Virus record (IMG/VR): IMGVR_UViG_3300042483_000604
DNA length: 64,000 bases
DNA from: a virus
Taxonomy: Duplodnaviria; Heunggongvirae; Uroviricota; Caudoviricetes
Reading direction: 5' to 3' (one strand)
Shown here: positions 237 through 60,494 of the stretch, piece by piece
Layout: every line of letters begins with the position of its first letter
How positions within the stretch are numbered: the first letter of the stretch is position 1
Position numbers and translations under genes: made by a program
Notes under the pieces: model-generated
The model's database searches: none
What the model was told of the DNA's origin: nothing
Seen by the model: the letters and a program-made list of their open reading frames with translations, nothing else

Positions 237-269
237 CCTAAAGATAAGAAGAAGCCTCCGAAGAGGCAA
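237..269 (-). promoter_or_regulatory. promoter motif TTG-N20-TAnnTTTAG (spacer contains GCCTC-TTCG-GAGGC hairpin)
   Basis: sequence. Confidence 0.5.
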
Positions 270-277
270 CTTTTTTT

Positions 278-412
278 TTAAAAATAAGGGAAATATTTTT
301 CTTTTAAATAAGTGATAACATCTTCTGCTGCTAATGCTTTGGCGTCTGCTAATGACATTTCTGATAAATAATCTTTTGCAATTTCTTCAACTAACTGATC
401 GATTTTTGACAT
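278..412 (-). CDS. small hypothetical protein (44 aa)
   Basis: short ORF with upstream promoter motif 437-470; below the ORF-track length cutoff. Confidence 0.3.
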   Translation of the reverse strand: MSKIDQLVEEIAKDYLSEMSLADAKALAAEDVITYLKEKYFPYF

Positions 413-436
413 ATTATATTGTTTTAATTATTGATG

Positions 437-470
437 CCTAAATATATGCATTTATATGGTAGGATCCAAC
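437..470 (-). promoter_or_regulatory. promoter motif TTG-N20-TATATTTAG
   Basis: sequence. Confidence 0.5.
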
Positions 471-522
471 CCTTATATGTTATTTATATTCATTATAAAT
501 TAAAAAAAAGTTAATAAAAAAG

Positions 523-555
523 TTGCTAGTTACAAAGATCGTTCGTATCTTTAGG
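523..555 (+). promoter_or_regulatory. Bacteroidetes-type promoter on the PLUS strand (TTG-N20-TATCTTTAGG)
   Basis: exact match to the recurring motif; only plus-strand copy; no ORF downstream. Confidence 0.55.
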
Positions 556-630
556 TATGTTAGAAGGGAATAAGGGGCCTGGCTTTGAAAGAGAGTCGGA
601 AGAGTAGAAGGGCCGGTACGCCATGTTCGT

Positions 631-700
631 TACTTAAAGCAAAGCTTTAACTTAAAGTGATGCTTTAACTGAATATTTTACTTAAAGGAAAGCTTTAGAT
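631..700. repeat. three tandem palindromic units (TTAAAGC-n3-GCTTTAA and variants)
   Basis: direct reading of the sequence. Confidence 0.55.
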
Positions 701-868
701 AAAAAGGAAAGGGCCCTTGTGAGGCCCCTGCTTGGAAGAGGAGTGCTTCTCCTTCCTGGTGTAGGTCTTCTTAGACTTCTGAATGGTATGCCGTGAGGCT
801 GCCCATCTCTCTTGCATTGTAATCTGAATCTGTTTCATAGGTGCTGAGTATTATTTTTAATATATAGG

Positions 869-1066
869 CTACATTAAAGTAGTACCCCAAGTATAGAACA
901 GGAAGAACATTACTAATACTGCTAGGAAGATTATCTTTTCCCCTATAGAAGAAGTAAATATCCATTTAATAGCCTCATAGATAAGTACAAGGAATATCAG
1001 TATACTAAATAAATGTACTATTCCAGAAAGAAATCCACCTTTGTTCTTATTTGTTTCCATACCCAT
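869..1066 (-). CDS. small membrane protein
   Basis: hydrophobic TM segments; promoter motif 1082-1114 immediately upstream. Confidence 0.5.
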   Translation of the reverse strand: MGMETNKNKGGFLSGIVHLFSILIFLVLIYEAIKWIFTSSIGEKIIFLAVLVMFFLFYTWGTTLM

Positions 1067-1081
1067 ACCTGTTTTTATATA

Positions 1082-1114
1082 CCTAAAGATAAGAAGAATA
1101 GATCATATAGGCAA
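1082..1114 (-). promoter_or_regulatory. promoter motif TTG-N20-TATCTTTAG
   Basis: sequence. Confidence 0.5.
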
Positions 1115-1159
1115 CTTTTTTATAGGCTTTTTTTACCCCCGAAGGGGGATAAGGACAGG

Positions 1160-1290
1160 GTCTCTAACGGGTAAAGAGAACGGGTCTCAATTGGGTCACT
1201 AGACGGGTAACAAAACGGGTAGCTAGAACGGGTTTGTAAAGGGTAACGAATCGGGTTACTAGAGAGTGAAACGGGTCTATAGAACGGGTA
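1160..1290. repeat. iteron array A: about 10 copies of AACGGGT (variants GACGGGT, TGGGT) at 11-13 bp spacing
   Basis: direct reading of the sequence. Confidence 0.7.
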
Positions 1291-1560
1291 TCTACTATAG
1301 ATTTTCCTTATTATAGAAAAAAACTATTAAGGAGACACACAAGCCACATTTTTCCTATCCTTATTTTACCATCCCTACTTCCTTTTTTTACACATCATAT
1401 ATACTATACAATACCTTTTCATACCAAGTACTATATGTCTTTATACTCTTCCATTCCTTTTACTACTCTTTATGTTTAATCAGAGTCGTACCCTTTTACT
1501 ATGTATTTCCAGTAGTTCTCCCTATGTCTCTCCCTTTATCTCTCCAGGTCCATACGTATG

Positions 1561-1632
1561 TATAAACGGGTATCGATTGGGTAGAGAAACGGGTAATTGG
1601 ACGGGTATCAAAGTGGGTATTTTAACGGGTAT
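1561..1632. repeat. iteron array B: about 6 copies of AACGGGT at ~12 bp spacing
   Basis: direct reading of the sequence. Confidence 0.7.
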
Positions 1633-1887
1633 CTAGGCTTGTTCTTCAAAGAAATAAGACCATAATCCTAATGAGAATTTACCTACATACTTTCCACTGT
1701 AATGACTTATATCATATGGTAGGTAAGTAGTTTCTCCTATAGGGGTAAATAAACATCTTCTTACATTACCCTCTTCTAGTATACCTTCATATACTCCTTC
1801 CTCTTCTCCAAGTCTATCTAAGTAATATGTCTTTCCTATTATTAGATTATTACCATCTACTTGTATTAACTTCTTATTTGTCTTCAT
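1633..1887 (-). CDS. hypothetical protein
   Basis: ORF track; follows the iteron region. Confidence 0.45.
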   Translation of the reverse strand: MKTNKKLIQVDGNNLIIGKTYYLDRLGEEEGVYEGILEEGNVRRCLFTPIGETTYLPYDISHYSGKYVGKFSLGLWSYFFEEQA

Positions 1888-1943
1888 TGTACTATTGCTG
1901 GATATATTATTTCTTTCTATAGTATTTACCCCTCTACGGATAC

Positions 1944-2150
1944 TTATATCTTTCTAATTTGTATTTGCCAAACTTCTTTTACCTTTATGTAACCATTCTC
2001 ATCTGGCTTTCCTACATATTTTAGTAAGGCCATATGACTATTCTTTTTTATTAGATTGAATGTCTTTGAATCATAATAGTCCATAAGGACTATTCTATAC
2101 CCTATCCTTCTACATATTCTCCAATATAGATTTGCTATTAGCTTTTTCAT
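1944..2150 (-). CDS. hypothetical protein
   Basis: ORF track. Confidence 0.4.
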   Translation of the reverse strand: MKKLIANLYWRICRRIGYRIVLMDYYDSKTFNLIKKNSHMALLKYVGKPDENGYIKVKEVWQIQIRKI

Positions 2151-2151
2151 A

Positions 2152-2367
2152 CTATTCGTCCATTGACATAAAGAATGATACTATAAGAGCTATTACCATA
2201 TACAATCTAACAATTGGCCATTCAATGTTTACTTGAATACTCCATGTCATAAAACATCCTATTGCATACAGTACTATACAAAGTGCTAATGGTAATGCTA
2301 TAAAAAATCCTAAATAAATTTCTAAAAACTTTTTCATATTTCTTCTAATGTTAATATTGATATACAA
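2152..2367 (-). CDS. small membrane protein
   Basis: two hydrophobic segments. Confidence 0.45.
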   Translation of the reverse strand: MYININIRRNMKKFLEIYLGFFIALPLALCIVLYAIGCFMTWSIQVNIEWPIVRLYMVIALIVSFFMSMDE

Positions 2368-2531
2368 TGTGGAAAGTTATCATAGTCTCTGAGTATTATC
2401 AATCCTCCTTGTTCCTTTACTACCTGGACAGCTATTCCTTCTATAACCTTTCCTGCTCCTTTTCTAGAGTTAAAGGTTACTTTATTACCTCTATACTTTT
2501 TATGATATAATACTACGTCTTCAATTTTCAT
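2334..2531 (-). CDS. hypothetical protein
   Basis: ORF track. Confidence 0.4.
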   Translation of the reverse strand: MKIEDVVLYHKKYRGNKVTFNSRKGAGKVIEGIAVQVVKEQGGLIILRDYDNFPHCISILTLEEI

Positions 2532-2689
2532 CTTCTATAACTAAATAAGGTTTATCATTCTCTGTCTTCTTTATTGTACCCCTTTGTATCAATTCCTGAG
2601 TACCTTGAGGATCTTTTTGAGACATTATTAGGATTGTCTCCTCCATATAGATTACTTTCATATAACTTTTGTTTAGATTTTACCTCCTA

Positions 2690-2760
2690 CAACTCGGAGG
2701 GTTGGGAGAATTTGCGCGTGACACCTTCGGTGAGGAGAGAGAAGCGCCCCCTCCTCCCCT
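2690..2760. repeat. GC-rich structured element copy 1 (core AATTTGCGCGTGACACCTTCGGTGAGGAG)
   Basis: 29-nt identity with 25501-25529; G-run/C-run outer stem; CACC-UUCG-GGUG tetraloop hairpin. Confidence 0.6.
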
Positions 2761-2889
2761 AAGTCTCTATATTGAATCTATTTGTTCTTGTGTTAAACTA
2801 TCTCTCCATTCATTGATGTAAGCCTCTTCCTCATCAAGTAATGCCTGTAATTCCTCTTCTGTCATAACCTTTATTTGTTTGTTTCTATA

Positions 2890-2922
2890 CCTAAATATAC
2901 GAAAAAAGAGCTGCGCTAGCAA
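2890..2922 (-). promoter_or_regulatory. promoter motif with palindromic spacer (terminator-like hairpin)
   Basis: sequence. Confidence 0.5.
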
Positions 2923-3836: not shown

Positions 3837-3869
3837 CCTAAATATACGAAATATATTCTTAGGAGGCAA
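3837..3869 (-). promoter_or_regulatory. promoter motif TTG-N20-TATATTTAG
   Basis: sequence. Confidence 0.55.
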
Positions 3870-4259: not shown

Positions 4260-4261
4260 AA

Positions 4262-5989: not shown

Positions 5990-6018
5990 AACTTATTGTT
6001 TTTAATTGATTAACATAC

Positions 6019-6051
6019 CTAAATATATGAACTATATCTTTGGTAGGCAAC
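6019..6051 (-). promoter_or_regulatory. promoter motif
   Basis: sequence. Confidence 0.55.
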
Positions 6052-6618: not shown

Positions 6619-6944
6619 ATACGATTACTATTTGCTTCTGATTTTTGATTAACCGGCATCTCTGGATTAGTTACAATTGTCTCTGTATCCATTCTGATTA
6701 CCTCTACGTTTGATTGTACAATATAGACTGGACCATTATAATCATATGTATGCATAGGAACATTGAACATACTATCTCCTAAGCCTGGCTGTTTGATAGG
6801 CTCAGTTATTCTTCTCTTTCCATCAAATGATCTGAATTCTCTAGCTGTAGTACGGTACCAATTACCTTTTATACAAACCTCACATACTCCTGAAGTATTA
6901 AAATCGTATACTAATTTTGCGGTATTACCAGTCTTTTCTCCCAT
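6615..6944 (-). CDS. hypothetical protein
   Basis: ORF track; promoter 6967-6999. Confidence 0.45.
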   Translation of the reverse strand: MGEKTGNTAKLVYDFNTSGVCEVCIKGNWYRTTAREFRSFDGKRRITEPIKQPGLGDSMFNVPMHTYDYNGPVYIVQSNVEVIRMDTETIVTNPEMPVNQKSEANSNRI

Positions 6945-6966: not shown

Positions 6967-6999
6967 CCTAAATATATGAATAAAGATTCGTACTAGCAA
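6967..6999 (-). promoter_or_regulatory. promoter motif
   Basis: sequence. Confidence 0.55.
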
Positions 7000-8196: not shown

Positions 8197-8229
8197 CCTA
8201 AATATAAGAACAATAGTCTTCTTAGGCAA
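8197..8229 (-). promoter_or_regulatory. promoter motif
   Basis: sequence. Confidence 0.55.
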
Positions 8230-17848: not shown

Positions 17849-17880
17849 CTTAAATATATGAAATTTATTCTTTATCTGCA
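17849..17880 (-). promoter_or_regulatory. promoter motif (19-nt spacer)
   Basis: sequence. Confidence 0.4.
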
Positions 17881-18323
17881 ACTTCTACATCAAAGAAGTT
17901 GATAGCATCTAATGCTTCCATAAAGTCTTCTTTCTCAAAATGTTTGATATTTTTCATATCCATTTTAGTTGTTTGACCTTTTGGGAACTTAGCTTTTTCT
18001 TCTTCTAAGATCTCTATAGAGTTTACTGCAGCCCATCTCCAATTATCTTTTGAATTTCCATCTAGGAATACCATTCCTTTCTCAGGAAGAGTAACTGTGG
18101 AAGGGAACCATACTTTCTTATTCTCATCAACGAACATAAGGTCTTTATACAGTTCTGGTGATGCTTCTAAAGTCTTATTAACTAATTCTCCTCCTTCAAC
18201 CATTAGAGTCGAAGTTGAATATCCACAACCAAAGCAAAAGCTTGTTGTTACTTCTTCTGTTACTGCTTGTTCATAGCAAGCATTTCCTCCACAATGTGGA
18301 CAGATTGACATTTTTTCTTCCAT
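17865..18323 (-). CDS. zinc-ribbon hypothetical protein
   Basis: CPHCGG...CFGCG. Confidence 0.45.
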   Translation of the reverse strand: MEEKMSICPHCGGNACYEQAVTEEVTTSFCFGCGYSTSTLMVEGGELVNKTLEASPELYKDLMFVDENKKVWFPSTVTLPEKGMVFLDGNSKDNWRWAAVNSIEILEEEKAKFPKGQTTKMDMKNIKHFEKEDFMEALDAINFFDVEVADKE

Positions 18324-22930: not shown

Positions 22931-23192
22931 CTGTTTGTTTTTTTACAATTGTTATGGTATTATCTATGTGATGTATTTCTTTTGTAATAGAAACTACATT
23001 TTCTTTTACTGAATCGATTTTAACATCGATTTGTTTATTAATTACTTGTGCTGAATCTATTTTGGTCTGTACTGAGTCGATTCTCATTTCGTAACCTTTT
23101 ACATCAGTTCTAATACTGTTTGTAGTAAAAATGTTATAACCTAATAGTGCAATAACAATTAATATAAGAATGTTTTGTTTATTTAGCAACAT
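22839..23192 (-). CDS. type-II membrane coiled-coil protein (i-spanin-like)
   Basis: N-terminal TM then repetitive coiled-coil; overlapping gene pair. Confidence 0.4.
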   Translation of the reverse strand: MLLNKQNILILIVIALLGYNIFTTNSIRTDVKGYEMRIDSVQTKIDSAQVINKQIDVKIDSVKENVVSITKEIHHIDNTITIVKKQTDEKINTVDKFSNAELEFFFTNRYNQGNTTN

Positions 23193-30504: not shown

Positions 30505-30530
30505 ACATAACCTTTTTTAATTTATATAAT

Positions 30531-30562
30531 ATAAAGATACGAAAAGAGCTGCGGTTAAGCAA
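30531..30562 (-). promoter_or_regulatory. promoter motif (TATCTTTAT -7) with hairpin in spacer
   Basis: sequence. Confidence 0.45.
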
Positions 30563-34479: not shown

Positions 34480-34531
34480 ATCTTTTTACTTTTTTATTAA
34501 TATAAGAAATTGGCTCCGAAGAGCCAACTTA

Positions 34532-35452: not shown

Positions 35453-35492
35453 ATAAGATTGTTTTTATGGAGGTTCTACGACTCCGTTTTAT

Positions 35493-35523
35493 TTAATATA
35501 ACATTTTTTATTCTATCCTGCAA
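35493..35523 (-). promoter_or_regulatory. promoter motif (TATATTAAA -7 variant) upstream of folE
   Basis: sequence. Confidence 0.35.
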
Positions 35524-39055: not shown

Positions 39056-39101
39056 AAGGTGTGTTTTTAAAGTGGTGCTACGACACTGTTGTTATATGTT
39101 A

Positions 39102-39133
39102 ATAAATATAAGAAATATCTTTTTATGATCCAA
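39102..39133 (-). promoter_or_regulatory. promoter motif (TATATTTAT -7)
   Basis: sequence. Confidence 0.45.
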
Positions 39134-40264: not shown

Positions 40265-40270
40265 AGTTTT

Positions 40271-40299
40271 TAATATACGAAATTTATTTTAAGACTCCA
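40271..40299 (-). promoter_or_regulatory. promoter-like motif (weak)
   Basis: sequence. Confidence 0.3.
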
Positions 40300-40675
40300 A
40301 ACTTTTTGGATAGTATTTTTCGTACAACTCTGCTTCTTTCTTTCCACAGTCCTCACATTGAACTCCTCTTCCAACAGTGCTTAACATCTGATCGTACATT
40401 GATAGGTTATCTAGTTCTTTCATTTCTTCTTCAGTAAGATCTTCTCTTTCTAAATTATTCCACCAATCTTTTCTTCCCCATTTATCAATCATTGCTTCCA
40501 TTTCAGGAACAGGAATGCACATTGTTATAAATCCGTGATAACAATTTTCTTTTTCTTCACCGCAGTGGTGACATGTTTCTAGTTTTTTCATTTCCAAAAT
40601 AATTGAACCATCATTATTGCAAAAGCTAATCCAAGACATATAAGTGTCTTCAAAGTAAATGGTTCTTGAAACCAT
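40289..40675 (-). CDS. cysteine-rich zinc-finger hypothetical protein
   Basis: CHHCG...C and CEDCGKK pairs. Confidence 0.4.
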   Translation of the reverse strand: MVSRTIYFEDTYMSWISFCNNDGSIILEMKKLETCHHCGEEKENCYHGFITMCIPVPEMEAMIDKWGRKDWWNNLEREDLTEEEMKELDNLSMYDQMLSTVGRGVQCEDCGKKEAELYEKYYPKSLES

Positions 40676-44407: not shown

Positions 44408-44440
44408 CCTAAATATATGAAATTATATTTGGCTTTCCAA
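44408..44440 (-). promoter_or_regulatory. promoter motif
   Basis: sequence. Confidence 0.5.
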
Positions 44441-46582: not shown

Positions 46583-46619
46583 AACCTTTACTTTAAATTA
46601 ATATCTAAATATACGAAAT

Positions 46620-47066
46620 TTATTTTGATAAAACAAACAATTCGTATACAGAATTTTCTGTATTAAATTTAATATAATCTTCTCTTTGTTCTACAATTTC
46701 TGTTACTGGTGTTGTTTGCCAAGTGAATGAAGGTCCGAATGGAGACATTAATAAACTTCTTCCAACAGCAATGTCTTTAAAGTCTGCTTTGTATCTTCCT
46801 TCTTCATCAAACTCTAACCATTTTATTCCTACTGATGTTTTAGTTAGTTGATCTCTTTCTCGAACTAATTTGTATTTTGGTTCTAGTTCTTTTCCGAAGA
46901 TGGACTTAAATGCTTCATCTAGATCAAATGTACCTTGCTCATTTTGAGTTAGTAATATTTTTGGCTGTGCTCCTCCTATCATAATCCTTTTTCTTTTTTG
47001 AATCGTTCTAATACACCATCCTGCAATACCAGTCCTTTCTCTCCTGCCACTCTTTCTACTAACCAT
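46620..47066 (-). CDS. hypothetical protein
   Basis: ORF track. Confidence 0.4.
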   Translation of the reverse strand: MVSRKSGRRERTGIAGWCIRTIQKRKRIMIGGAQPKILLTQNEQGTFDLDEAFKSIFGKELEPKYKLVRERDQLTKTSVGIKWLEFDEEGRYKADFKDIAVGRSLLMSPFGPSFTWQTTPVTEIVEQREDYIKFNTENSVYELFVLSK

Positions 47067-47798: not shown

Positions 47799-47831
47799 CC
47801 TAAATATATGAAAAAAGAGTTGAACTAGCAA
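47799..47831 (-). promoter_or_regulatory. promoter motif with palindromic spacer
   Basis: sequence. Confidence 0.55.
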
Positions 47832-50553: not shown

Positions 50554-50586
50554 CCTAAATATACGAATAAAAGCCTGCCGAAGCAA
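50554..50586 (-). promoter_or_regulatory. promoter motif with UUCG-loop hairpin plus U-run in spacer (terminator-promoter module)
   Basis: sequence. Confidence 0.55.
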
Positions 50587-51832: not shown

Positions 51833-51911
51833 ATGATAACTTTTTAATTTTGATTTATACTCTAATATAAGAAGAAAGGTTCAGGTTTCCAAACCTTTCT
51901 CCGAATATTTC

Positions 51912-52287: not shown

Positions 52288-52292
52288 ATTTG

Positions 52293-52366: not shown

Positions 52367-52372
52367 ATAAGC

Positions 52373-52444
52373 GGTCTGCACGGGGATCGAACCCGCAATC
52401 TTCGCAGTGACAGTGCGACGTGTTACCAATAACACCTCCAGACC
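52373..52444 (-). tRNA. tRNA-Asp (GTC)
   Basis: cloverleaf, loop CTGTCAC. Confidence 0.75.
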
Positions 52445-52498
52445 AAAATGCCCGTCTGTTCCGAGCTGTCAACCACCAGCTGTTATACAGCTGTATAG

Positions 52499-52570
52499 TG
52501 GAGCTACCGGGATTCGAACCCGGAATAACAGAATGCAAATCTATCGTGATGCCAATTTCACTATAGCCCC
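52499..52570 (-). tRNA. tRNA-Ala (TGC)
   Basis: cloverleaf, G3-U70 identity pair, loop TTTGCAT. Confidence 0.8.
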
Positions 52571-52645
52571 AGTTACTCGTCTTTCCGAGTCGTCAAATCT
52601 AGAAGCTGATTAAGCTATTCCTCCTAATACGAATAAAGAGCTCTG

Positions 52646-52717
52646 TACTGCGTACGGGATTCGAACCCGTGCCTTATCATAGAAAGTGATACGTGTTTAC
52701 CCCTTCACTAACGCAGC
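52646..52717 (-). tRNA. tRNA-Glu (TTC)
   Basis: cloverleaf, loop CTTTCTA. Confidence 0.75.
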
Positions 52718-52723
52718 AATTTG

Positions 52724-52795
52724 AGCGGCTAGAGAGAATCGAACTCTCATCTTTAGATTGGAAGTCTAAAGTAATGACCATTATACGATAGCCGC
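52724..52795 (-). tRNA. tRNA-Gly (TCC)
   Basis: cloverleaf, loop CTTCCAA. Confidence 0.8.
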
Positions 52796-52800
52796 AGTTG

Positions 52801-52874
52801 AGCTTCTGGACGGGATCGAACCGACTCTATTCTGGGTTACAAATCCAGTGCACCACCATTTGTGCGTCAGAAGC
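52801..52874 (-). tRNA. tRNA-Thr (TGT)
   Basis: cloverleaf, loop TTTGTAA closed by an A-C mismatch. Confidence 0.6.
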
Positions 52875-53069
52875 AAATTTAAACTATTAGAGGCTATTGG
52901 GAGTCATCAGTGGCAGCCTTTCACCGTAAACTCGGCTTCCCAATCTTATCTGCACATCTATCTAACTTTTTACGCATAATAGTTTATATTTTAATTAGAG
53001 CCGGGCTATGAATCCGTTCTGCAGGTTAGCCCCTGCTGCTTTAACCTTTATAAGCTAACTCTAATTTTG

Positions 53070-53143
53070 TACCCAAGGAGGGACTCGAACCCTCAATATC
53101 TAGATCCTAAGTCTAGCGTGTCTGCCAATTCCACCACTCGGGC
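53070..53143 (-). tRNA. tRNA with anticodon TAG (Leu-like D arm, short variable arm)
   Basis: GTGGAATTGGCAGAC D-arm like tRNA-Leu, loop CTTAGGA, A73, but only a 5-nt variable region. Confidence 0.5.
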
Positions 53144-53238
53144 ATTTGCCGCATGTGCGGCCACTTATCAATCGGTAGCTCCCTCTCGTTGTCCATCTGT
53201 GGGTGTAACACATTTGGTAGAGGGTCGAACCTTCAATG

Positions 53239-53309
53239 AGGTCGGTGTTGGAATCGAACCAACGTTACAGAGTTTGCAATCCTGCGCCTAACCATTCGGC
53301 CAACCGACC
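53239..53309 (-). tRNA. tRNA-Cys (GCA)
   Basis: cloverleaf, loop TTGCAAA, U73. Confidence 0.65.
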
Positions 53310-53394
53310 AATTTAAACATCTAGCCTGACCTGCCAGACAGTACGTGTCGTCGATCGTGCGTTACGTAGTAGATGTTTTATCTTCTTTCTTATA

Positions 53395-53427
53395 CTTAAA
53401 GATATGAACTTTATTTCTTTCTAGCAA
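53395..53427 (-). promoter_or_regulatory. promoter motif positioned to transcribe the tRNA sub-array 52213-53309
   Basis: sequence. Confidence 0.5.
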
Positions 53428-53436
53428 CTTTTTTTA

Positions 53437-53943
53437 CTAAAAAAATAAAAAAGTTTCCCATTCCTTTGGTATGTGTGTCATAGTTCTCATTAACATTAAA
53501 TAGTGAGGTCTTTTTGGTTCTGGAATTTCCTTACCGTATTCCTCTAATGTTAAATCTGCTTTCTCATGATTACATGGTCTGCAGGCTGTTACTAAATTAT
53601 CCCAAGCATCTTTTCCTCCTTTTGATTGAGGTATAACATGGTCAAGTGTTAGTGTTCTTTGATTTGAACATCCGCAGTAAACACATTCGTAATTATCTCT
53701 TCTATAAATATTCTCTCTTGTTAGAGCTACTTTTTGAATATTATGTTTTACATATGTAAATACTCTAATAATAGAAGGTTTATAAATTGTTAATTCTGGG
53801 TTATACAGATTAAATGTTTCTGGATGTTCAGCTATTACTTCAGCATTACCTTTATAAGAAATCACGAAAGCTCTTTCTGTACTTATAACTGATCTTGCGA
53901 TAAAGCTGGCATCTACTACTAGTGCTTTTTGATACTTACTCAT
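53437..53943 (-). CDS. HNH endonuclease inserted within the tRNA array
   Basis: CVYCG...LDHVIPQSKGG..WDNLVTAC..CNHEK canonical HNH motif. Confidence 0.8.
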   Translation of the reverse strand: MSKYQKALVVDASFIARSVISTERAFVISYKGNAEVIAEHPETFNLYNPELTIYKPSIIRVFTYVKHNIQKVALTRENIYRRDNYECVYCGCSNQRTLTLDHVIPQSKGGKDAWDNLVTACRPCNHEKADLTLEEYGKEIPEPKRPHYLMLMRTMTHIPKEWETFLFF

Positions 53944-53975
53944 GATTTACTTTTTTTAATGAAACAATATATTTG

Positions 53976-54052
53976 CGCGAACCCTAGGAATCGAACCCAG
54001 CCGTCGAGGTTTTGGAGACCTGACCGACACCTTGTCTGTGGAACGCATTTGT
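53976..54052 (-). other. degenerate tRNA-like element
   Basis: TTCGATT T-arm but no acceptable acceptor/anticodon arms. Confidence 0.25.
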
Positions 54053-54118
54053 AGGGTATCGCTTAACCTACCTAGATTAGCCTCATCTACTTAACCCTTA
54101 TGAGGGACGATTTTTTTG

Positions 54119-54189
54119 AACCCATACCTGGACTTGAACCAGGACTGAAACGTTAGAAGCGTTTAGTTCTTCCGATTAAACTATACGGG
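54119..54189 (-). tRNA. tRNA-Arg (TCT)
   Basis: cloverleaf, loop CTTCTAA, TTCAAGT T-loop. Confidence 0.7.
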
Positions 54190-54195
54190 CAGTTG

Positions 54196-54267
54196 AGGTC
54201 TTAGTAGGAGTCGAACCTACGTTCTATCGTTCGTAGCGATAAGTTTTTCCAATTAAACTATAAGACC
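54196..54267 (-). tRNA. tRNA-Arg (ACG)
   Basis: cloverleaf, loop CTACGAA. Confidence 0.75.
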
Positions 54268-54343
54268 AAATAAGAGAGGCTTTATTTAAGCTACTTTCTG
54301 CTATGCAACAGGGTAGGCAATTAGTCCTACATCTCTCTCTTTG

Positions 54344-54423
54344 TACCCCTGACTGGAGTCGAACCAGCAAGCCTGAGCGCCAAGTTTTAAGCCTGGTGTG
54401 TTTACCATTTTCACCACAGGGAT
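54344..54423 (-). tRNA. tRNA-Leu (TAA), class II
   Basis: loop CTTAAAA, 11-nt variable arm, A73. Confidence 0.65.
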
Positions 54424-54430
54424 ATGTTTG

Positions 54431-54504
54431 TGTGAAAGATGGGACTCGAACCCACAATCTCCTGAACCACAATCAGACGCTTTACCAATTCAGCTACAAT
54501 CACC
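54431..54504 (-). tRNA. tRNA-His (GTG)
   Basis: loop TTGTGGT, extra 5' G(-1); acceptor has two U-U mismatches. Confidence 0.55.
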
Positions 54505-54710
54505 ATATTGTACCGACTACAAGTTACGCTCTTGTCTGAGAATACTTATGAGATATTCTCGATCCTAGATCAAGTCGGTAGTTGATAGGGAACCTCTTAC
54601 CCTATCGCTGTACTATCTGATTTTAAAGTGTCTTACCACGGGGCCCCGTTCGTACTTCCTTCTCCTGCATTCCTTAGATGCGTTGTGAGGACGGTGAGGA
54701 GGTTTTTTTG

Positions 54711-54793
54711 AGGAAAGCAGAGGTATCGAACCCCATGCCCGAAGGCACGATACGCTTAGCAAGCGGTCTCAACTCCTAGTTGATTTACTTTCC
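54711..54793 (-). tRNA. tRNA-Ser (GCT), class II
   Basis: loop TTGCTAA, long variable-arm hairpin with UUCG loop; T-stem imperfect. Confidence 0.45.
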
Positions 54794-54798
54794 CTTTG

Positions 54799-54872
54799 TA
54801 GGTAATATAGGAATCGAACCTATAACCTCTCACGTATCAGGCGAGTGCTCTAACCAATTGAGCTAATTACCT
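54799..54872 (-). tRNA. tRNA-Ile (GAT)
   Basis: clean cloverleaf, loop CTGATAC. Confidence 0.8.
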
Positions 54873-54879
54873 ATTTTTG

Positions 54880-54955
54880 TGCTCATAGCTGGAATCGAAC
54901 CAACCTCGATAAGTCACTTACTCCAACCAACTGCTACTTGTTACGTACCTTGAGC
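54880..54955 (-). tRNA. tRNA, anticodon unresolved
   Basis: good T-arm and acceptor; D/anticodon arms could not be folded by eye. Confidence 0.4.
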
Positions 54956-55032
54956 TTTTACGATTGACCGTCACGTTATCCCACTTCAGGTTGGGGAGCT
55001 ACCACACTACCTGTTATACGAGCATTTAATTG

Positions 55033-55104
55033 CGGGCCTGGGAGGAATCGAACCTCCATAAGATGATTAACAGTCATCCGTAATAACCTTTATACGACAA
55101 ACCC
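55033..55104 (-). tRNA. tRNA-Asn (GTT)
   Basis: cloverleaf, perfect GATGA/TCATC anticodon stem, loop CTGTTAA. Confidence 0.8.
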
Positions 55105-55109
55105 GGTTG

Positions 55110-55182
55110 TGGACCCTACAGGAATCGAACCTGTTCCTCTAGTTCTTCAGACTAGCGTACGCACCAGCTATACAAAAGGTCC
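55110..55182 (-). tRNA. tRNA-Phe (GAA)
   Basis: cloverleaf, loop CTGAAGA. Confidence 0.8.
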
Positions 55183-55187
55183 AATTG

Positions 55188-55270
55188 TGGGATACTGTGG
55201 AATCGAACCACACGCTTCTTACAGCAACGATTTTACAGACCGCTTATCACACCAGTGACTGAAGCATCCC
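55188..55270 (-). tRNA. tRNA-Tyr (GTA), class II
   Basis: loop CTGTAAA, long variable arm. Confidence 0.7.
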
Positions 55271-55276
55271 AATTTG

Positions 55277-55348
55277 ATCATTCTACAGGAATCGAACCTG
55301 CTTCTCCACCCTCCACGGGCAGCGTAGTCACCAATCTACCAAGAACGA
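55277..55348 (-). tRNA. tRNA, atypical anticodon loop CGTGGAG (TGG-like, lacks U33)
   Basis: good acceptor, D and T arms. Confidence 0.4.
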
Positions 55349-55447
55349 AACTATAACAAGCTTTCATCGGCAAATTACTAACTCATAATAGACTCCATAT
55401 AGTCTTGAAAATACTTGCCGGTATTTTACTTGCTACCCAGAATTTTG

Positions 55448-55518
55448 TACCTCGTGATAGAATCGAACTATCGCCCTTTGCATGTAAAACAAATACGCTA
55501 CCATTACGCCAACGAGGC
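55448..55518 (-). tRNA. tRNA-Val (TAC)
   Basis: cloverleaf, loop TTTACAT. Confidence 0.75.
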
Positions 55519-55575
55519 AAATCTAATTCTACGCTTCGGTCTAAAAGCCCTTCTATGAATTAGTAACAGTCTTCT
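55519..55575 (-). repeat. conserved tRNA 5'-leader, copy 1 (upstream of tRNA-Val)
   Basis: CAAATCTAATTCTACGCTTCG...CTTCTATGAATTAGTAACAGTCT shared with 55653-55712. Confidence 0.5.
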
Positions 55576-55579
55576 TTTG

Positions 55580-55652
55580 TACCCCCGGCTGGCCTCGAAC
55601 CAGCTACCCCCGAGTTAAAAGCCCGGTGCCCGTCCACATGAGCTTCGAAGGC
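55580..55652 (-). tRNA. tRNA-Lys (TTT)
   Basis: cloverleaf, loop CTTTTAA, perfect T-stem. Confidence 0.7.
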
Positions 55653-55712
55653 AAATCTAATTCTACGCTTCGAGGACTTACTCGCGTGGTCTTCTATGAA
55701 TTAGTAACAGTC
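55653..55712 (-). repeat. conserved tRNA 5'-leader, copy 2 (upstream of tRNA-Lys)
   Basis: direct repeat of 55519-55575. Confidence 0.5.
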
Positions 55713-55720
55713 TCTTCTCG

Positions 55721-55796
55721 TCTGGTAGGCAGGATTCGAACCTGCGTGCTCTAGCGTCCAAGGCCAGCGAGATAAACCGGACTCCTCTACTACCAG
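55721..55796 (-). tRNA. tRNA-Pro (TGG)
   Basis: cloverleaf, loop CTTGGAC. Confidence 0.75.
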
Positions 55797-56011
55797 TGGT
55801 GAAGGGATTATTTTTTTAAAGTAGAATTCGCCCATCTCAAAACTACTGTAATTTCCGTAAGCAAAGCCATCGGGCTGATTCCCTGTACTCATGTCTTGCA
55901 TCGTTTTCTCCATATGGATTTCTCCACTACTTACTGATAATGCTTTCTTTACTAACCGTCCTACTTACTGATCAAGTGTTGGGATAGGCTTTCATTACTT
56001 ACAATTATTTG

Positions 56012-56083
56012 TTGGCTTACTAGGATTCGAACCTAGACTAAAACAGTCAAAGTGTTTTGTGCTAACCGTTACACTATAAGCCA
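56012..56083 (-). tRNA. tRNA-Gln (TTG)
   Basis: cloverleaf, AAACA/TGTTT stem, loop CTTTGAC. Confidence 0.8.
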
Positions 56084-56089
56084 ATATTG

Positions 56090-56173
56090 AGGAAGACGTG
56101 GGACTCGAACCCACAACAGTATTACCTGCTACCACTTTTCAAGAGTGGCTCCTGATCCAGCCGGATGCCTTCC
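56090..56173 (-). tRNA. tRNA-Ser (TGA), class II
   Basis: CCACT/AGTGG stem, loop CTTGAAA, long variable arm. Confidence 0.7.
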
Positions 56174-56221
56174 CTATGCTTTATCCAATATGTCAATGAA
56201 CTCTTATTCTTTATTTCTGTA

Positions 56222-56253
56222 CCTAAAGATACGATTTTTTTTTCTTTCTAGCA
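56222..56253 (-). promoter_or_regulatory. promoter motif positioned to transcribe the tRNA sub-array ending at 56173
   Basis: sequence. Confidence 0.5.
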
Positions 56254-56270
56254 ACTTTTTTTTAATAAAA

Positions 56271-56305
56271 AACCCGAATCTTTTTTTGATCCGGGTACCT
56301 TACTT
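56271..56305 (-). terminator. hairpin plus U-run upstream of the promoter at 56222
   Basis: ACCCGGATC-A7-GATTCGGGT then U6 on the minus strand. Confidence 0.35.
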
Positions 56306-56332
56306 ATAATATGTATTTTATACTATATCATA

Positions 56333-56476
56333 TCATACCCCGGTACCTCCTTGTTTCGGTTCGTTATTATATCCAGCAAAGCCTAAAATGACATCCCCAC
56401 ATAACGAATCCGACCACGTATTCAATGCTCTTGTCGCTGTGCTAAGTTGTTGATGTATGTTTTGAATTGCTTTCAT
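56333..56476 (-). CDS. small hypothetical protein (47 aa)
   Basis: ORF preceded by tandem promoter motifs 56496-56527 and 56565-56596. Confidence 0.25.
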   Translation of the reverse strand: MKAIQNIHQQLSTATRALNTWSDSLCGDVILGFAGYNNEPKQGGTGV

Positions 56477-56495
56477 TTTATTTGCTTTCTATATA

Positions 56496-56527
56496 TAAAT
56501 ATATGAACTTTTCCATTCCAGTCCAAC
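56496..56527 (-). promoter_or_regulatory. promoter motif (tandem copy 1)
   Basis: sequence. Confidence 0.4.
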
Positions 56528-56564
56528 TATATTTTAATTTTTTTTCTTTGTGTTTTTATATATT

Positions 56565-56596
56565 ATAAATATACGAACTTTTATTTTATAAAACAA
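56565..56596 (-). promoter_or_regulatory. promoter motif (tandem copy 2)
   Basis: sequence. Confidence 0.4.
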
Positions 56597-56616
56597 CTAC
56601 TGTTCTTTGGATTAAT

Positions 56617-56928
56617 TTATCCGTTTATTAATTTTTTTTTCTTAACTGGCTCACATCCATCATTGTTAATTGACGTAAGTTTTTGTTCTAATTTGTCTAC
56701 TCTGGAGTCTGTATAGGAAATACAGTCTGAGTGTAGTTTGTTTACTCGATCAACTTCCTGATCAATTCTACGATTTACTAATTCATCGTTTCTAGAAATC
56801 CAGTTCTGTATTTCAGTTAACTCTTTTTCTTGCTTTGCTACTTTGCTTGCTGTTCTAAACGCTACCACAACCCCCCATGCAAGGAGAGCTATACCAACCC
56901 CTAAAACAAATGCTAAAATTTGTTCCAT
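56617..56928 (-). CDS. membrane-anchored coiled-coil protein
   Basis: N-terminal TM helix. Confidence 0.4.
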   Translation of the reverse strand: MEQILAFVLGVGIALLAWGVVVAFRTASKVAKQEKELTEIQNWISRNDELVNRRIDQEVDRVNKLHSDCISYTDSRVDKLEQKLTSINNDGCEPVKKKKLING

Positions 56929-56969
56929 AATTTATAATTTTTATTTCAAAGAACAGTAGTTTAATTTTG

Positions 56970-57066
56970 TAGTCAGGACAGGATTCGAACCTGCTCCAGC
57001 TTTGCCATAAATAGTATATTTCAACTAAACCTTGGGGAGGTGCCACCAACCAATGGTCTCCTGACT
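56970..57066 (-). tRNA. atypically long (97 nt) tRNA-like gene, possible insertion/intron
   Basis: canonical T-arm and 7-bp acceptor pairing, but ~25 extra nt between D and T regions. Confidence 0.35.
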
Positions 57067-57071
57067 GTTTG

Positions 57072-57157
57072 GAATCGGTGAGGGATTCGAACCCTCATCC
57101 CGCTTAGAAGCGGTGTTACCCTCTGTCGGTATTCATTCCCGATTACACCAACCGATT
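57072..57157 (-). tRNA. class II tRNA (Leu/Ser-like), anticodon unresolved
   Basis: perfect GAGGG/CCCTC T-arm, 7-bp acceptor, variable-arm hairpin CCGC-TTCTAA-GCGG. Confidence 0.5.
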
Positions 57158-57508: not shown

Positions 57509-57541
57509 CTTAAAGATAAGAACTTTAATTCAATTGAGCAA
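57509..57541 (-). promoter_or_regulatory. promoter motif
   Basis: sequence. Confidence 0.5.
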
Positions 57542-57939: not shown

Positions 57940-57943
57940 AATC

Positions 57944-58834
57944 TTAATTGTTATGGTTATTTAATACTTTTGTTACTTCTGTTACTACATGTTCCCATGT
58001 TACTGGTCCTGTTTCGTCTGCGTAAGGAGCTGGATCAGGTCTTCCTAATTTAATAAATGCTTCTACTCTTTCAACTGATGAAGCTGATTTATAATCTGAG
58101 AACCATTCTTCAAATTTTTCAAATGTTACTGGGTCATGGTATACCATTTTAATTGGTTTGTAAGATGTATTAGTTCTTGAATAAACTTCATCAAAGTCTA
58201 ATCCTAACTCTTTACATAATACTTCTCCGTCTTGTAAGATAGTAAATTTATCTCCTTCTAAGTAAGGTGTAAAATACCCTACTCTTTCTGCTTCCCAGTT
58301 ACCCATTCTAAAAGCTGCATCATCTGCATCTCTAAATTCTTGTCTACAGTCTGGATAAATTGCATGATCACCTGCATGGATACCCATTGCAATATCACAA
58401 GTCTCTCCTGTTCTATTTGCAACTGATAAAGCTACTGCTTGAGTAATAGAAGCAAATATTTTGTTTCTGTTAGGAACAACTGTTGCTTTCATATTATCTT
58501 CTGCATAGTGACCTTCTGGTACATCTTCACCTCCTGTTACTAAAGCTGAATCTAGTAAATCAACTAATCCTTTTAATTGGATTTGGCGATACATAACTTC
58601 ATTGTAGTTTTTTCCTACTACCGTAATTGTACCTAATTGATCTTGTTCCGCTTTTTCAGAGCAACCATTAAGGTACTCTACTAATGATTGAGCTCTCTCT
58701 AACTCTACTCTGTGTTTTTGACCATAGTCAAAGCTAATAGCTGTAACTGTGTCATACTCTTTTAGACATCTAAGTAATAAGGTACTTGAGTCCATTCCTC
58801 CTGATAAGGATACTACAACATGTTTTTTAGACAT
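57944..58834 (-). CDS. queC: 7-cyano-7-deazaguanine synthase with C-terminal extension
   Basis: VVSLSGGMDSST PP-loop motif; ~70 aa longer than a typical QueC. Confidence 0.7.
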   Translation of the reverse strand: MSKKHVVVSLSGGMDSSTLLLRCLKEYDTVTAISFDYGQKHRVELERAQSLVEYLNGCSEKAEQDQLGTITVVGKNYNEVMYRQIQLKGLVDLLDSALVTGGEDVPEGHYAEDNMKATVVPNRNKIFASITQAVALSVANRTGETCDIAMGIHAGDHAIYPDCRQEFRDADDAAFRMGNWEAERVGYFTPYLEGDKFTILQDGEVLCKELGLDFDEVYSRTNTSYKPIKMVYHDPVTFEKFEEWFSDYKSASSVERVEAFIKLGRPDPAPYADETGPVTWEHVVTEVTKVLNNHNN

Positions 58835-58885
58835 AATTTATAATTTTAAATAAGCCAGGTATTTTAAGCGTATAGGCAAACGCTT

Positions 58886-59080
58886 TTAGTTTTCTCTTAA
58901 TTCAAATTCTAATTCAGGATCACCGACTTTGTCATAACTGAATTCCCAATCTAAATCGCTATCGAATGTTTCCCAGAAAAGATCTTCATTTTCTTTATAC
59001 ATTGTTAATTGTTCGTCAGTAAGATTTACTTCATAAACATTAACATCTGTTACAGTTTCGTATTTTCTTAATGTAGCCAT
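58886..59080 (-). CDS. small acidic hypothetical protein
   Basis: ORF track. Confidence 0.35.
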   Translation of the reverse strand: MATLRKYETVTDVNVYEVNLTDEQLTMYKENEDLFWETFDSDLDWEFSYDKVGDPELEFELREN

Positions 59081-59085
59081 AACTT

Positions 59086-59331
59086 TTATAATTGATAACT
59101 TTGACGATCTCCTAAGGAAGGTTCTACTTCTGATTGTTCAGTTTTAAAATACTCTTGTAAAAATTCCCTCTTATAAAGCATTACCTTTCCTTTGTATCGA
59201 GTATTTGAAATTTCTCTAGTTCCTACTTCCTGTTTTGCTTTAAGAGCTGCTTTATATACTTTGTCTCCTAACTCTTGTCCTGCAGCATAACCTAAGTAAT
59301 CGTATAAAGATATTAATCCTCTTTCTTCCAT
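59086..59331 (-). CDS. hypothetical protein
   Basis: ORF track. Confidence 0.4.
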   Translation of the reverse strand: MEERGLISLYDYLGYAAGQELGDKVYKAALKAKQEVGTREISNTRYKGKVMLYKREFLQEYFKTEQSEVEPSLGDRQSYQL

Positions 59332-59472
59332 AACGATTTAATTCTGTATTTAATATACGAAATACTTCCTCCTACTGCAACAAAAAATGCAGAAATGTTT
59401 AGTAAATTAGGATGCCAATGCTCTCCACATAGTCCCAACGCATGTTTAAATGTCTCTACCATACTCTCTTTC

Positions 59473-59781
59473 TTAATCGATAGTAGTCATTGTTCGCATC
59501 TTTTGCTCAATAGAGTTCCAAGTTTCAATATATTCCTTTATTGTCTTGAAATGTTTATTTTCATTAAAGTTTAGTAACTCTTTTGAAACTGTTTTTAATG
59601 CATGATTGAATGTGGCTGGATAGCTTACAGTTCTTAGGTATGCTTTATCGTCTTTACCTCTGTTTACTCTTTCATAAACTGTGTAACCTCCTGATGGAGA
59701 ATGTGTAATGAAGAATGGCTCCATGATTGGATCCTCGATAAGGGTATCGCCTGCCGGTATTGTATCTGGATTACGTAACAT
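59473..59781 (-). CDS. hypothetical protein
   Basis: ORF track. Confidence 0.4.
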   Translation of the reverse strand: MLRNPDTIPAGDTLIEDPIMEPFFITHSPSGGYTVYERVNRGKDDKAYLRTVSYPATFNHALKTVSKELLNFNENKHFKTIKEYIETWNSIEQKMRTMTTID

Positions 59782-59793
59782 TTGTTTTGATTT

Positions 59794-60060
59794 TTAGTTT
59801 AAAATTAATTCTTTTAATTCTTCTACCCCTAGTCTTCCAGATGCAGCTTTTACTTCTACTCCGTCTTGAAGAACTACTGTGTGAGGAATTCCTCTTACCT
59901 TATGCTGACCTGATAAGTTTTCTGTATCTTCCTCTACATTAATTTCTAAGAAAGTAATCTCATCACTTTCTAACTCTTCTCTTACTTTTGTAAATGTAGG
60001 TCCATATACTTTACACGGACCACACCAATTAGCATAAAACTTAATTACCTGCTTTGCCAT
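59794..60060 (-). CDS. thioredoxin
   Basis: WCGPC active site. Confidence 0.75.
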   Translation of the reverse strand: MAKQVIKFYANWCGPCKVYGPTFTKVREELESDEITFLEINVEEDTENLSGQHKVRGIPHTVVLQDGVEVKAASGRLGVEELKELILN

Positions 60061-60252
60061 ATGCTCCTTTTGATTTGTAGTGATCAGCTTTGCTGAATTT
60101 ACTTTGTGATTGTTCTTGTTTAGGAACTGATGTTCTTCCTAAGGTTGGAATCCATTCCATTAGTTGAGTATAAATACTCTTTGCTGAATTTTTAGACATA
60201 TCCTTTATTTTTGATTATACTATAATATAGGTATTTTAATTGAGAAATACAA

Positions 60253-60459
60253 CTATTTCTCTACCTTTTTTATACCTCCCCACTTGAGCATATTGTTTAT
60301 TCTATTTTCTAAGGTAATAAAATCTCCTACCTCTACACAGTATTTAAGTTGACTCAATTGAAACTCTCTAGTACTATTAGGCTGTTCTTCGTCCCAATAT
60401 TCTGGATCTAGTTCGTACTTCTGTTTTTTGTATGTAATAGTATATTCTTTACCTTTCAT
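60253..60459 (-). CDS. hypothetical protein
   Basis: ORF track; promoter 60463-60494 abuts the start (near-leaderless). Confidence 0.4.
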   Translation of the reverse strand: MKGKEYTITYKKQKYELDPEYWDEEQPNSTREFQLSQLKYCVEVGDFITLENRINNMLKWGGIKKVEK

Positions 60460-60462
60460 ATG

Positions 60463-60494
60463 ATAAAGATACGAAATTTATTACATTTCTCCAA
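60463..60494 (-). promoter_or_regulatory. promoter motif abutting the start codon (near-leaderless transcript)
   Basis: sequence. Confidence 0.4.

Follow-up and report, generated by a model that had tools for sequence, protein, structure and literature searches.

Across 64,000 nucleotides (nt) of a Caudoviricetes genome (IMG/VR record IMGVR_UViG_3300042483_000604), a stretch that we refer to as the window, one block of sequence recurs about 30 times: a TTG, 20 nt of spacer and a box of the type TAnnTTTAG, in some copies with a GC-rich hairpin folded into the spacer. An initial annotation of the window had taken this block for a Bacteroidetes sigma-A promoter, fused in many copies with a terminator, and had suggested that such cassettes insulate each gene. 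We asked what the block is, which RNA polymerase (RNAP) would read it, and whether the hairpins would end transcription coming from upstream. Directly observed are the motif with its geometry and its distribution over the genome, and the hairpins with their bias toward the sense strand. The reading that we favor and consider likely is that a T4-related Flavobacterium myophage of the Immutovirus group uses the copies as promoters of one specific class, probably the early one. These promoters would be written in the −33/−7 grammar of Bacteroidota promoters and would resemble promoter-early stem-loops (PeSLs), promoter–terminator cassettes already known from T4-like phages of other bacteria. Both the PeSL architecture and the membership of all copies in a single promoter class had been missed by the initial annotation.

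The window was assigned by megablast to the group of the Flavobacterium myophage vB_FspM_immuto (Immutovirus, 160 kb; hereafter immuto), with 86% identity across 45% of its first 20 kb, and the DNA polymerases of the two phages are 97% identical. The annotation of immuto is T4-like, with gp20-like, gp23-like and baseplate wedge genes, and in its window-homologous part small hypothetical genes are found together with genes for replication and for the metabolism of sugars and nucleotides, and with a 7-deazaguanine DNA-modification set. The genes of this last set (DpdA, QueC, QueD, QueE, QueF and FolE) are annotated in immuto at 29.8–37.3 kb, to which ~30.5–38.7 kb of the window is homologous. 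The phage DNA is probably modified at G, which could influence how G residues in promoters are read. Almost all window genes are encoded on the minus strand.

Within the window, the exact block CCTAAAKATA occurred 14 times (13 on the plus strand and one on the minus strand, 0.61 expected), and the full TTG-N20-TAYMTTTAGG occurred 13 times (12 on the minus, coding strand and one on the plus strand, 0.01 expected). When the −7 box was relaxed to TA[TC][ACT]TT[TA]A and the spacer was held at exactly 20 nt, there were 27 copies on the minus strand and one on the plus strand, compared with 0–3 copies for each of the spacers 17–19 and 21–23. Because this spacer series provides an internal control, we regard the fixed spacing and the strand bias as established, and the initial claims of more than 20 copies and of a constant 20-nt spacer both hold. 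A position weight matrix scan, which the initial annotation had proposed, was built from the exact copies and picked up further, weaker ones. The copies cover the range 237–60494 first given for them, from the first at 237–269 to the last at 60462–60494 (Table 1), and 29 of the 30 are co-oriented with the genes.

Pooling copies from this phage and its relatives gave 259 non-redundant sequences, from which we derived an extended consensus, with positions (x) counted relative to the TA of the −7 box. It comprises an A-tract (x = −42 to −39), a second A-tract (x = −30 to −27), A-G-TTG-C/G, 15 free positions and then TTC-n-TAT-(A/C)-TTTAGG-TAT. The TTG was present in 100% of the 259 copies, the T, A, H, H, T, T and T of the −7 box in 95–100%, and the last position of that box (−5) was A in 100%, followed by GG. 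The A-rich, UP-like tract mentioned in the initial annotation turned out to be double: the two tracts lie at approximately −42 and −54 from the expected start, one helical turn apart and at the places of the UP-element subsites in Escherichia coli. No Shine-Dalgarno sequence follows; instead the leader is A-rich and ends in the start context RGTTATG. On the coding strand of the window there are 32 cases of RGTT-ATG after an A-rich run, compared with two on the other strand, and 21 of the 32 begin open reading frames (ORFs) of at least 30 amino acids (aa). This context has G at −3, where F. johnsoniae favors A (PMC6847099).

The placement of the copies points to a promoter. Start codons mostly lie 13–26 nt past the predicted transcription start, and such leaders fit the median 5′ untranslated region of 24 nt in F. 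psychrophilum (PMC9723704), which we counted in favor of promoter function. Motif copies also precede tRNA-Ser (56173), tRNA-Cys (53309) and a conserved ORF-free region; this excludes a translation signal, and a processing signal does not account for such placements either. Upstream stop codons generally fall at x = −24 to −52, in an AT-rich tract. As the initial annotation had noticed, several copies reach into the 3′ end of the upstream coding sequence (CDS), namely those at 17858, 44417 and 46613 (stop codons at x = −6 or −7) and at 60471 (approximately x = −10); in four more (3846, 6976, 8206 and 60229) the upstream stop codon TAG abuts the TTG. The one leaderless copy that it had described has become two candidates, at 60471 (ATG at x = 12) and 17858 (ATG at x = 11). 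Taken together, the two-block geometry, the co-orientation, the leader length and the placement at tRNA genes and non-coding sequence make a promoter the best reading of the motif.

The motif might instead be no promoter but a selfish element dispersed in the manner of MITEs or by homing, or a signal for translation or for the processing of RNA. In favor of this stands the similarity among the cassettes, which share ~80 nt at 75–90% identity, including a leader, TATCAATAATTAAAAC, of no obvious function. However, the conservation takes the form of two blocks at a fixed distance around a free spacer, terminal repeats and target duplications are lacking, the copies are strictly co-oriented with genes at a constant distance from start codons, and some stand ahead of tRNA genes and the non-coding region. 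We therefore consider an origin of this kind extremely improbable.

Turning to the genes that carry the motif, we found that it marks one promoter class, clustered at small genes and nearly absent from structural genes. In immuto, 25 of 33 copies lie at 60.9–76.2 kb, ahead of almost every small hypothetical gene there; a few weaker variants occur among metabolic and replication genes, and only one of the 33 falls in the structural half at 80–160 kb. In the window, 23 of the 112 predicted genes own a copy. Many structural genes of immuto (78–154 kb) have a second motif instead, TATTTATA(A/T), which lacks a −33 element and sits 10–20 nt 5′ of the start codon. It occurs 28 times on the coding strand versus 12 times on the other, and minus-strand copies are found in the window at 9180, 21271, 24565, 56501 and 56571. 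This second motif resembles the −10-only late promoters of T4, TATAAATA, and is probably a late-promoter class.

We then considered the hairpins. Eight of the ~30 window copies contain one with a folding free energy (ΔG) of −9 kcal/mol or below (range −9 to −17), which tempers the initial statement that many copies do. The three hairpins that had been named, in the copies beginning at 237, 2890 and 50554, all exist, although their coordinates had been placed 5–9 nt away from the true spans (Table 1). The window hairpins start in the proximal A-tract, include the TTG in their 5′ arm and end in the T-run before the −7 box, and all eight show the layout of an intrinsic terminator: a GC stem, a short loop and a U-tract, 3′ of a stop codon and on the sense strand. 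Among the 259 non-redundant copies, a ΔG of −10 or below was reached by 56 (versus 6 of 259 dinucleotide shuffles) and of −12 or below by 41 (versus 1 of 259). Another 16 copies have a hairpin immediately upstream of the motif, and the share of hairpin-bearing copies is ~22–33%.

Several features of these hairpins belong to the sense transcript. In a symmetric search of both strands, which replaced an earlier comparison biased by its use of sense-selected hairpins, sense hairpins outnumbered antisense ones by 56 to 15 at the −10 cutoff and by 41 to 9 at the −12 cutoff. G·U pairs made up 100 of 702 stem pairs, and 21 of 66 loops were C(UUCG)G. Every strong hairpin has an A-tract before it and a T-run after it. 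Whenever a hairpin is present, the stop codon of the upstream gene precedes it, and copies whose spacer is entered by the upstream CDS have none. In one orthologous pair (window 47808 and immuto 22092) the stem was kept through a two-sided change, G-C to C-G, together with one wobble; a wider covariation survey of orthologous hairpins had too few ungapped orthologues. A sigma-70/terminator scanner returned counts at or below those of shuffles for the window overall; it scored motif copies as TTGCnn-17-TATATT and picked up three of the embedded hairpins.

The natural reading of this layout is that the embedded hairpins are putative intrinsic terminators of the upstream unit, nested in the promoter of the next. 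The inverted repeats might instead be DNA operators for a dimeric regulator, recombination targets, or signals that stabilize or process RNA 3′ ends: a repressor would be expected to act at the −33 element, with which they overlap, the authors of the PeSL work speculated that the stems might be recombinase targets (PMC2839356), and the simple terminator scan did not rise above shuffles. But stem sequences vary between copies, which makes a single DNA-binding protein unlikely, and the stability that favors the sense RNA, the G·U pairs and the UUCG tetraloops are properties of RNA and argue against DNA operators. The A-tract and T-run flanks of every strong hairpin and the lack of a hairpin whenever the upstream CDS crosses the spacer also count against these alternatives. 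We regard these alternatives to termination as very doubtful. The idea of terminator–promoter cassettes is thus borne out by the sequence evidence for a subset of copies, with ~70% of copies lacking a hairpin and to that extent speaking against it, whereas the suggestion that the cassettes insulate each gene goes too far given the number of genes that own a copy and the share of copies that bear a hairpin.

Which polymerase would read the motif? Bacteroidota sigma-A (sigma-ABfr) promoters consist of a −33 TTTG and a −7 TAnnTTTG (PMC6847099; PMC9723704); TAHHTTTG spans −12 to −5, with the start 4–5 nt later (PMC6847099; PMC9723704), and in F. johnsoniae the G at −5 is nearly invariant (PMC6847099). 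The phage motif shares with these promoters T−12, A−11, the exclusion of G at −10 and −9, T at −8, −7 and −6, and a TTG ~33 nt upstream. It also resembles SM2, the strongest F. psychrophilum class, whose promoters have a −33 box and are extended on the 3′ side by C+A-rich sequence (PMC9723704), and one host tRNA promoter, TTGC-N..-TTTCTTATATTTGCA, is very close to the phage TTCTTATATTTAGG. The phage −33 element is far more conserved than that of the host, which is weak or dispensable. The sigma-A match claimed at the outset is incomplete: the overall geometry and the T and A positions are host-like, and at −5 the phage has A followed by GG.

A further clue came from bacterial genomes. In Zeaxanthinibacter the extended motif stands, as an exact copy, 5′ of a transposase gene of IS5-like type (Pfam DUF772). 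Two Flagellimonas species and a Flavobacteriaceae metagenome-assembled genome carry this repeat with the motif as well, at contig ends or within contigs. In this element the motif is followed by a short hairpin leader; in two of the bacterial sequences the copy lies at 366–401 and at 6801–6836, respectively, in seven more it lies at a contig end, and the element is the only recurrent context of the extended motif in bacterial genomes. We had taken the Flagellimonas contig-end matches for rRNA promoters and rejected this idea, because they are accompanied by no rRNA or tRNA and the repeat proved to be an insertion sequence with a DUF772 transposase. The presence of the motif ahead of a transposase gene in bacterial genomes suggests that the polymerase of uninfected Flavobacteriaceae probably reads it.

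Several observations nevertheless weigh against reading by the plain host enzyme. The A and GG of the phage stand where the host G is nearly invariant. In the F. psychrophilum table of transcription start sites, TATATTTG and TATCTTTG together occur 147 times versus 22 for TATATTTA, and in the part of the table that was read TTTAGG lies off the −7 position. The phage spacer is 20 nt, whereas that of one host tRNA promoter, a single host example, is 19. The extended motif was found at more than 115 IMG/VR loci, with 104 of 115 being immuto-related; bacterial genomes totaling 596 Gb contained just 39 loci, and the unrelated Flavobacterium phages 11b and FCL-2 contain no copy. It is thus a hallmark of one lineage and not a general feature of Flavobacterium phages, which would also fit a lineage-specific recognition factor. 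Where transcription starts and ends, when it takes place and which polymerase and sigma factor carry it out are all inferred.

These points suggest that the copies could be promoters that are read with a phage-specific factor, such as a divergent sigma, an appropriator of the MotA/AsiA type or an injected RNAP modifier like Alt, which would recognize AGTTGC, N20, TTC and the A−5 GG; in that case these would be middle promoters, or early ones assisted by the factor. Besides the invariant A at −5 against a near-invariant host G (PMC6847099), the 20-nt spacer and the confinement of the extended motif to one phage lineage, such a factor would agree with the scarcity of canonical promoters (TTG, 18–21 nt, TAnnTTTG), of which there are three on the coding strand of immuto (160 kb) and two on that of the window. 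It would also agree with the second class, TATTTATA(A/T), at late genes, from which it follows that the phage very probably reprograms RNAP. On the other hand, 87 hypothetical immuto proteins gave no Pfam match to Sigma70, AsiA or MotA (E ≤ 0.01), although Pfam would miss a phage sigma or appropriator that had diverged strongly. Moreover, the geometry and five of the six key −7 positions are host-like, one promoter per gene among tiny ORFans is the classic layout of early host-takeover genes, and the exact copy ahead of a transposase gene is found in uninfected Flavobacteriaceae. T4-family early promoters, too, are lineage-specific yet sigma-70 dependent (PMC4122927). Because those promoters deviate by lineage and remain dependent on the host sigma factor, we think it probable that the host sigma-A holoenzyme reads the motif, and rate the participation of a phage-specific factor as unlikely.

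Of all the features of the motif, only the invariant A at −5 might conceal a novelty. In a narrower version of factor dependence, to which we give a low probability, A(−5)GG and the 20-nt spacer define a lineage-specific promoter class that plain host sigma-A reads poorly and that either needs an injected or very early phage factor, which would be an Alt-like modifier or an unrecognizable sigma or appropriator, or is adapted to the phage's own 7-deazaguanine DNA, in which a modified G at −5 might be unreadable. If this were true, the phage could keep its own early transcription apart from that of its host.

Several known phage promoter sets invite comparison. The early sets of T4 and T5 and the host-takeover set of SPO1 comprise many near-identical, stronger-than-consensus promoters with upstream A-tracts, one per small early gene. 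They are read by unmodified host RNAP and use the −35/−10 grammar of sigma-70 or Bacillus sigma-A, unlike the motif described here. T4 middle promoters combine a MotA box at −30 with a sigma-70 −10 element and work through sigma appropriation by AsiA and MotA. The present motif is similar to them in joining a conserved, non-host-like extension at approximately −30/−33 to a host-like downstream box, and differs in that the TTG has the position and spacing of the host −33 element and that MotA and AsiA had no match in the Pfam search of the 87 immuto proteins. Phage nt-1 has PmSLs, in which such promoters carry stem-loops (PMC4122927).

The closest parallel is with PeSLs. In phages RB49 and phi1, PeSLs have a stem-loop mostly between −35 and −10, with G-T pairs, after the upstream stop codon in an AT-rich tract; they are dense in hyperplastic ORFan regions, and their promoter and terminator activities have been shown in E. 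coli (PMC2839356). Others were described in T4/PST and KVP40/nt-1, with a consensus specific to each lineage and A3-4G3-loop-C3T3-4 stems (Comeau et al. 2014; PMC4122927). The cassettes of the window are likewise ~60–80 nt units composed of a stop codon in an AT-rich tract, a host-type box, a stem-loop with G-T pairs, a second box, a short leader and a start codon, and they are concentrated in the plastic, small-ORFan regions of a large T4-related myovirus and scarce among its structural genes. Their consensus is again lineage-specific and slightly off that of the host, and the A3-4/G-rich...C-rich/T3-4 layout of the nt-1 stems recurs in the present hairpins. They differ in the Bacteroidota host, in having a −33 TTG and −7 TAnnTTT(A) instead of TTGACA and TATAAT, in an A-rich leader with RGTT-ATG at the 3′ end in place of a Shine-Dalgarno sequence (as expected for Bacteroidota), and in that only 22–33% of copies bear a stem-loop. 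In the searchable literature, PeSLs were reported only for phages of Proteobacteria, with none for Bacteroidota phages or for this motif; a cyanophage study looked for them and found few, and our literature search returned no paper on immuto transcription.

Recombination between PeSL copies yields deletions and mini-circles (PMC2839356; Arbiol et al. 2010), and one junction in the window is likewise recombinant between two copies. At position 246 the segment from x = −32 to approximately −9, including the GCCTC-TTCG-GAGGC stem, is identical to immuto copy 67941, and from the −7 box on, the leader and gene correspond to those of immuto copy 68694. In immuto the two copies are separated by ~750 bp with two genes, all of which the window lacks. 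In relatives that share the downstream gene, the upstream half of the promoter is unrelated. Of 50 synteny block ends, nine lie near motif copies versus 1.9 for random positions, an excess that arises because breakpoints fall between genes: window/immuto breakpoints were not enriched at cassettes (6 of 23 cassette junctions versus 20 of 89 others; Fisher p = 0.78), and we dropped the idea of such an enrichment, which vanishes against other gene junctions. With this result counting against it, PeSL-style recombination rests on the single chimeric junction, and a role of the cassettes in gene shuffling is plausible.

In the mechanism that we propose, host RNAP with the housekeeping sigma-A would bind the cassette duplex and contact the two phased, UP-element-like A-tracts, AGTTGC at −33, an extended TTC at approximately −15 and TAT(A/C)TTTAGG at −7. 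Transcription would start ~11–13 nt after the TA, within the conserved GGTAT, and would yield a non-coding RNA, a precursor of tRNAs or an mRNA whose A-rich leader is only 13–26 nt long. In the hairpin-bearing copies, RNA arriving from upstream would read as an A-tract, a GC stem (often including the TTG), a tight loop (often UUCG) and a U-tract, such that upstream transcription would end inside the next promoter, which would save space and keep read-through out of the next unit. Because the ~80-nt cassettes are nearly identical, they may also recombine with each other.

If correct, this reading would show that the PeSL type of composite cassette, so far described in T4-like phages that infect Proteobacteria, also exists in a T4-related phage with a Bacteroidota host, and its presence there would imply that the architecture is either ancestral to the virus group or repeatedly selected. 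The motif map would divide the window into ~30 transcription units, make early-type and late-type genes separable in Immutovirus-like phages and correct some gene starts. Flavobacteriia, for which genetic tools are scarce, would also gain compact promoters and terminators, probably of very high strength, and the fixed A at −5 could be used to examine how the last position of the −7 element is read by Bacteroidota sigma-A.

Table 1. Motif copies in the window, with embedded hairpins (ΔG in kcal/mol) and genomic context.
Span	Strand	Type	Hairpin	Context
237..269	−	motif copy; TTG 267–269, TATCTTTAGG 237–246	GCCTC-UUCG-GAGGC, 249–272 with A:T extension	predicted to drive 70-aa ORF via conserved leader TATCAATAATTAAAAC
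437..469	−	motif copy, TTGG variant	none	5′ of 44-aa ORF; leader TATCAATAATTAAAAC again
523..555	+	sole plus-strand copy		faces conserved ORF-free GC-rich region ~557–845
1082..1114	−	motif copy	none	5′ of 65-aa ORF
2890..2922	−	motif copy	putative terminator AAAAGAGUUGC-UAGC-GCAGCUCUUUU, 2901–2932, ΔG −14.6; TTG in 5′ arm; one sense-strand U·G pair	
3837..3869	−	motif copy		upstream ORF stop TAG abuts TTG; 44-nt leader, then 279-aa ORF
6018..6050	−	motif copy	none	
6967..6999	−	motif copy		upstream stop TAG abuts TTG
8197..8229	−	motif copy		upstream stop TAG abuts TTG; predicted to drive homologue of immuto 'DnaK suppressor protein' gene (DksA-like)
17849..17881	−	variant TATATTTAAG		−33 and spacer inside upstream CDS; ATG at x = 11, leaderless candidate (glycosyltransferase)
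23157..23189	−	weak variant TATATTAATT		
30530..30562	−	variant TATCTTTATA	embedded putative terminator hairpin, 30542–30569, ΔG −13.4	
34495..34527	−	variant TATATTAATA	AAGUUGGCUC-UUCG-GAGCCAAUUU, 34507–34530, ΔG −12.9	
35491..35523	−	weak variant TATATTAAAT		
39101..39133	−	weak variant TATATTTATT		
40268..40300	−	weak variant TATATTAAAA		
43410..43442	−	variant TATCTTTAAG	embedded, 43422–43451, ΔG −12.0	
44408..44440	−	motif copy		upstream CDS ends at x = −6; −33 and spacer inside CDS
46604..46636	−	variant TATATTTAGA		upstream CDS ends at x = −7
47799..47831	−	motif copy	AAAAGAGUUG-CUAGUU-CAACUCUUUU, 47813–47838, ΔG −9.1	
50554..50586	−	motif copy	AAAAGCUUGC-UUCG-GCAGGCUUUU, 50569–50592, ΔG −12.2; U·G pair	
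51860..51892	−	variant TATATTAGAG	strong, 51871–51902, ΔG −16.6	
53395..53427	−	variant TATCTTTAAG		~85 nt 5′ of tRNA-Cys (53309–53238); predicted to drive second tRNA block
56222..56254	−	motif copy	separate terminator-like hairpin just upstream, 56272–56296	~46 nt 5′ of tRNA-Ser (56173); predicted to drive tRNA array
56494..56526	−	variant TATATTTATA		overlaps late-type motif TATTTATA
56564..56596	−	variant TATATTTATAA		overlaps late-type motif TATTTATA
57509..57541	−	variant TATCTTTAAG		5′ of 65-aa ORF and tRNA-Leu
59348..59380	−	weak variant TATATTAAAT		
60220..60252	−	weak variant TATATTATAG	GAGAAAUA-GUUG-UAUUUCUC, ΔG −6.6; TTG in loop	copy 60229: stop TAG abuts TTG
60462..60494	−	variant TATCTTTATC		−33 and spacer inside upstream CDS, stop at approximately x = −10; ATG at x = 12, leaderless candidate

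The only plus-strand copy points against all neighboring genes, toward the region 557–845, which is conserved in immuto and in four IMG/VR relatives. A 45-nt core of this region, AGGGGCCTGGCTTTGAAAGAGAGTCGGAAGAGTAGACGGGCCGGTAC, hardly varies at all, including in sequences whose flanks have diverged, and is followed by up to three CTTAAAG-N-GCTTTAA hairpins. The region had no Rfam match and little covariation among six sequences, and we regard it as a candidate phage non-coding RNA.

The 23 tRNA genes of the window (52212–57157, minus strand) fall into two blocks, each with a motif copy ahead of it (56231 and 53404), and an Rfam search of the whole window returned tRNAs and nothing else. At the place homologous to this array, the immuto annotation lists only four tRNAs.

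Three further observations concern other parts of the two genomes. One hypothetical protein of immuto (28130–28828 or its neighbor) gave a weak Pfam match, below any threshold, to the T4 endoribonuclease RegB (E = 0.0056). A GC-rich stretch, cctcctacaactcggagggttgggag...cccctcctcccc, lies at ~2640–2766 of the window, 3′ of a 32-aa ORF and in surroundings of 32% GC, and may be a structured RNA; a permissive Rfam scan of window positions 500–2800 gave no credible match. Lastly, AACGGGT is repeated ~16 times at a spacing of 11–13 nt in two clusters (1160–1300 and 1560–1640) that flank a 260-nt pyrimidine-rich, ORF-free stretch, an iteron-like array that may mark a replication origin.

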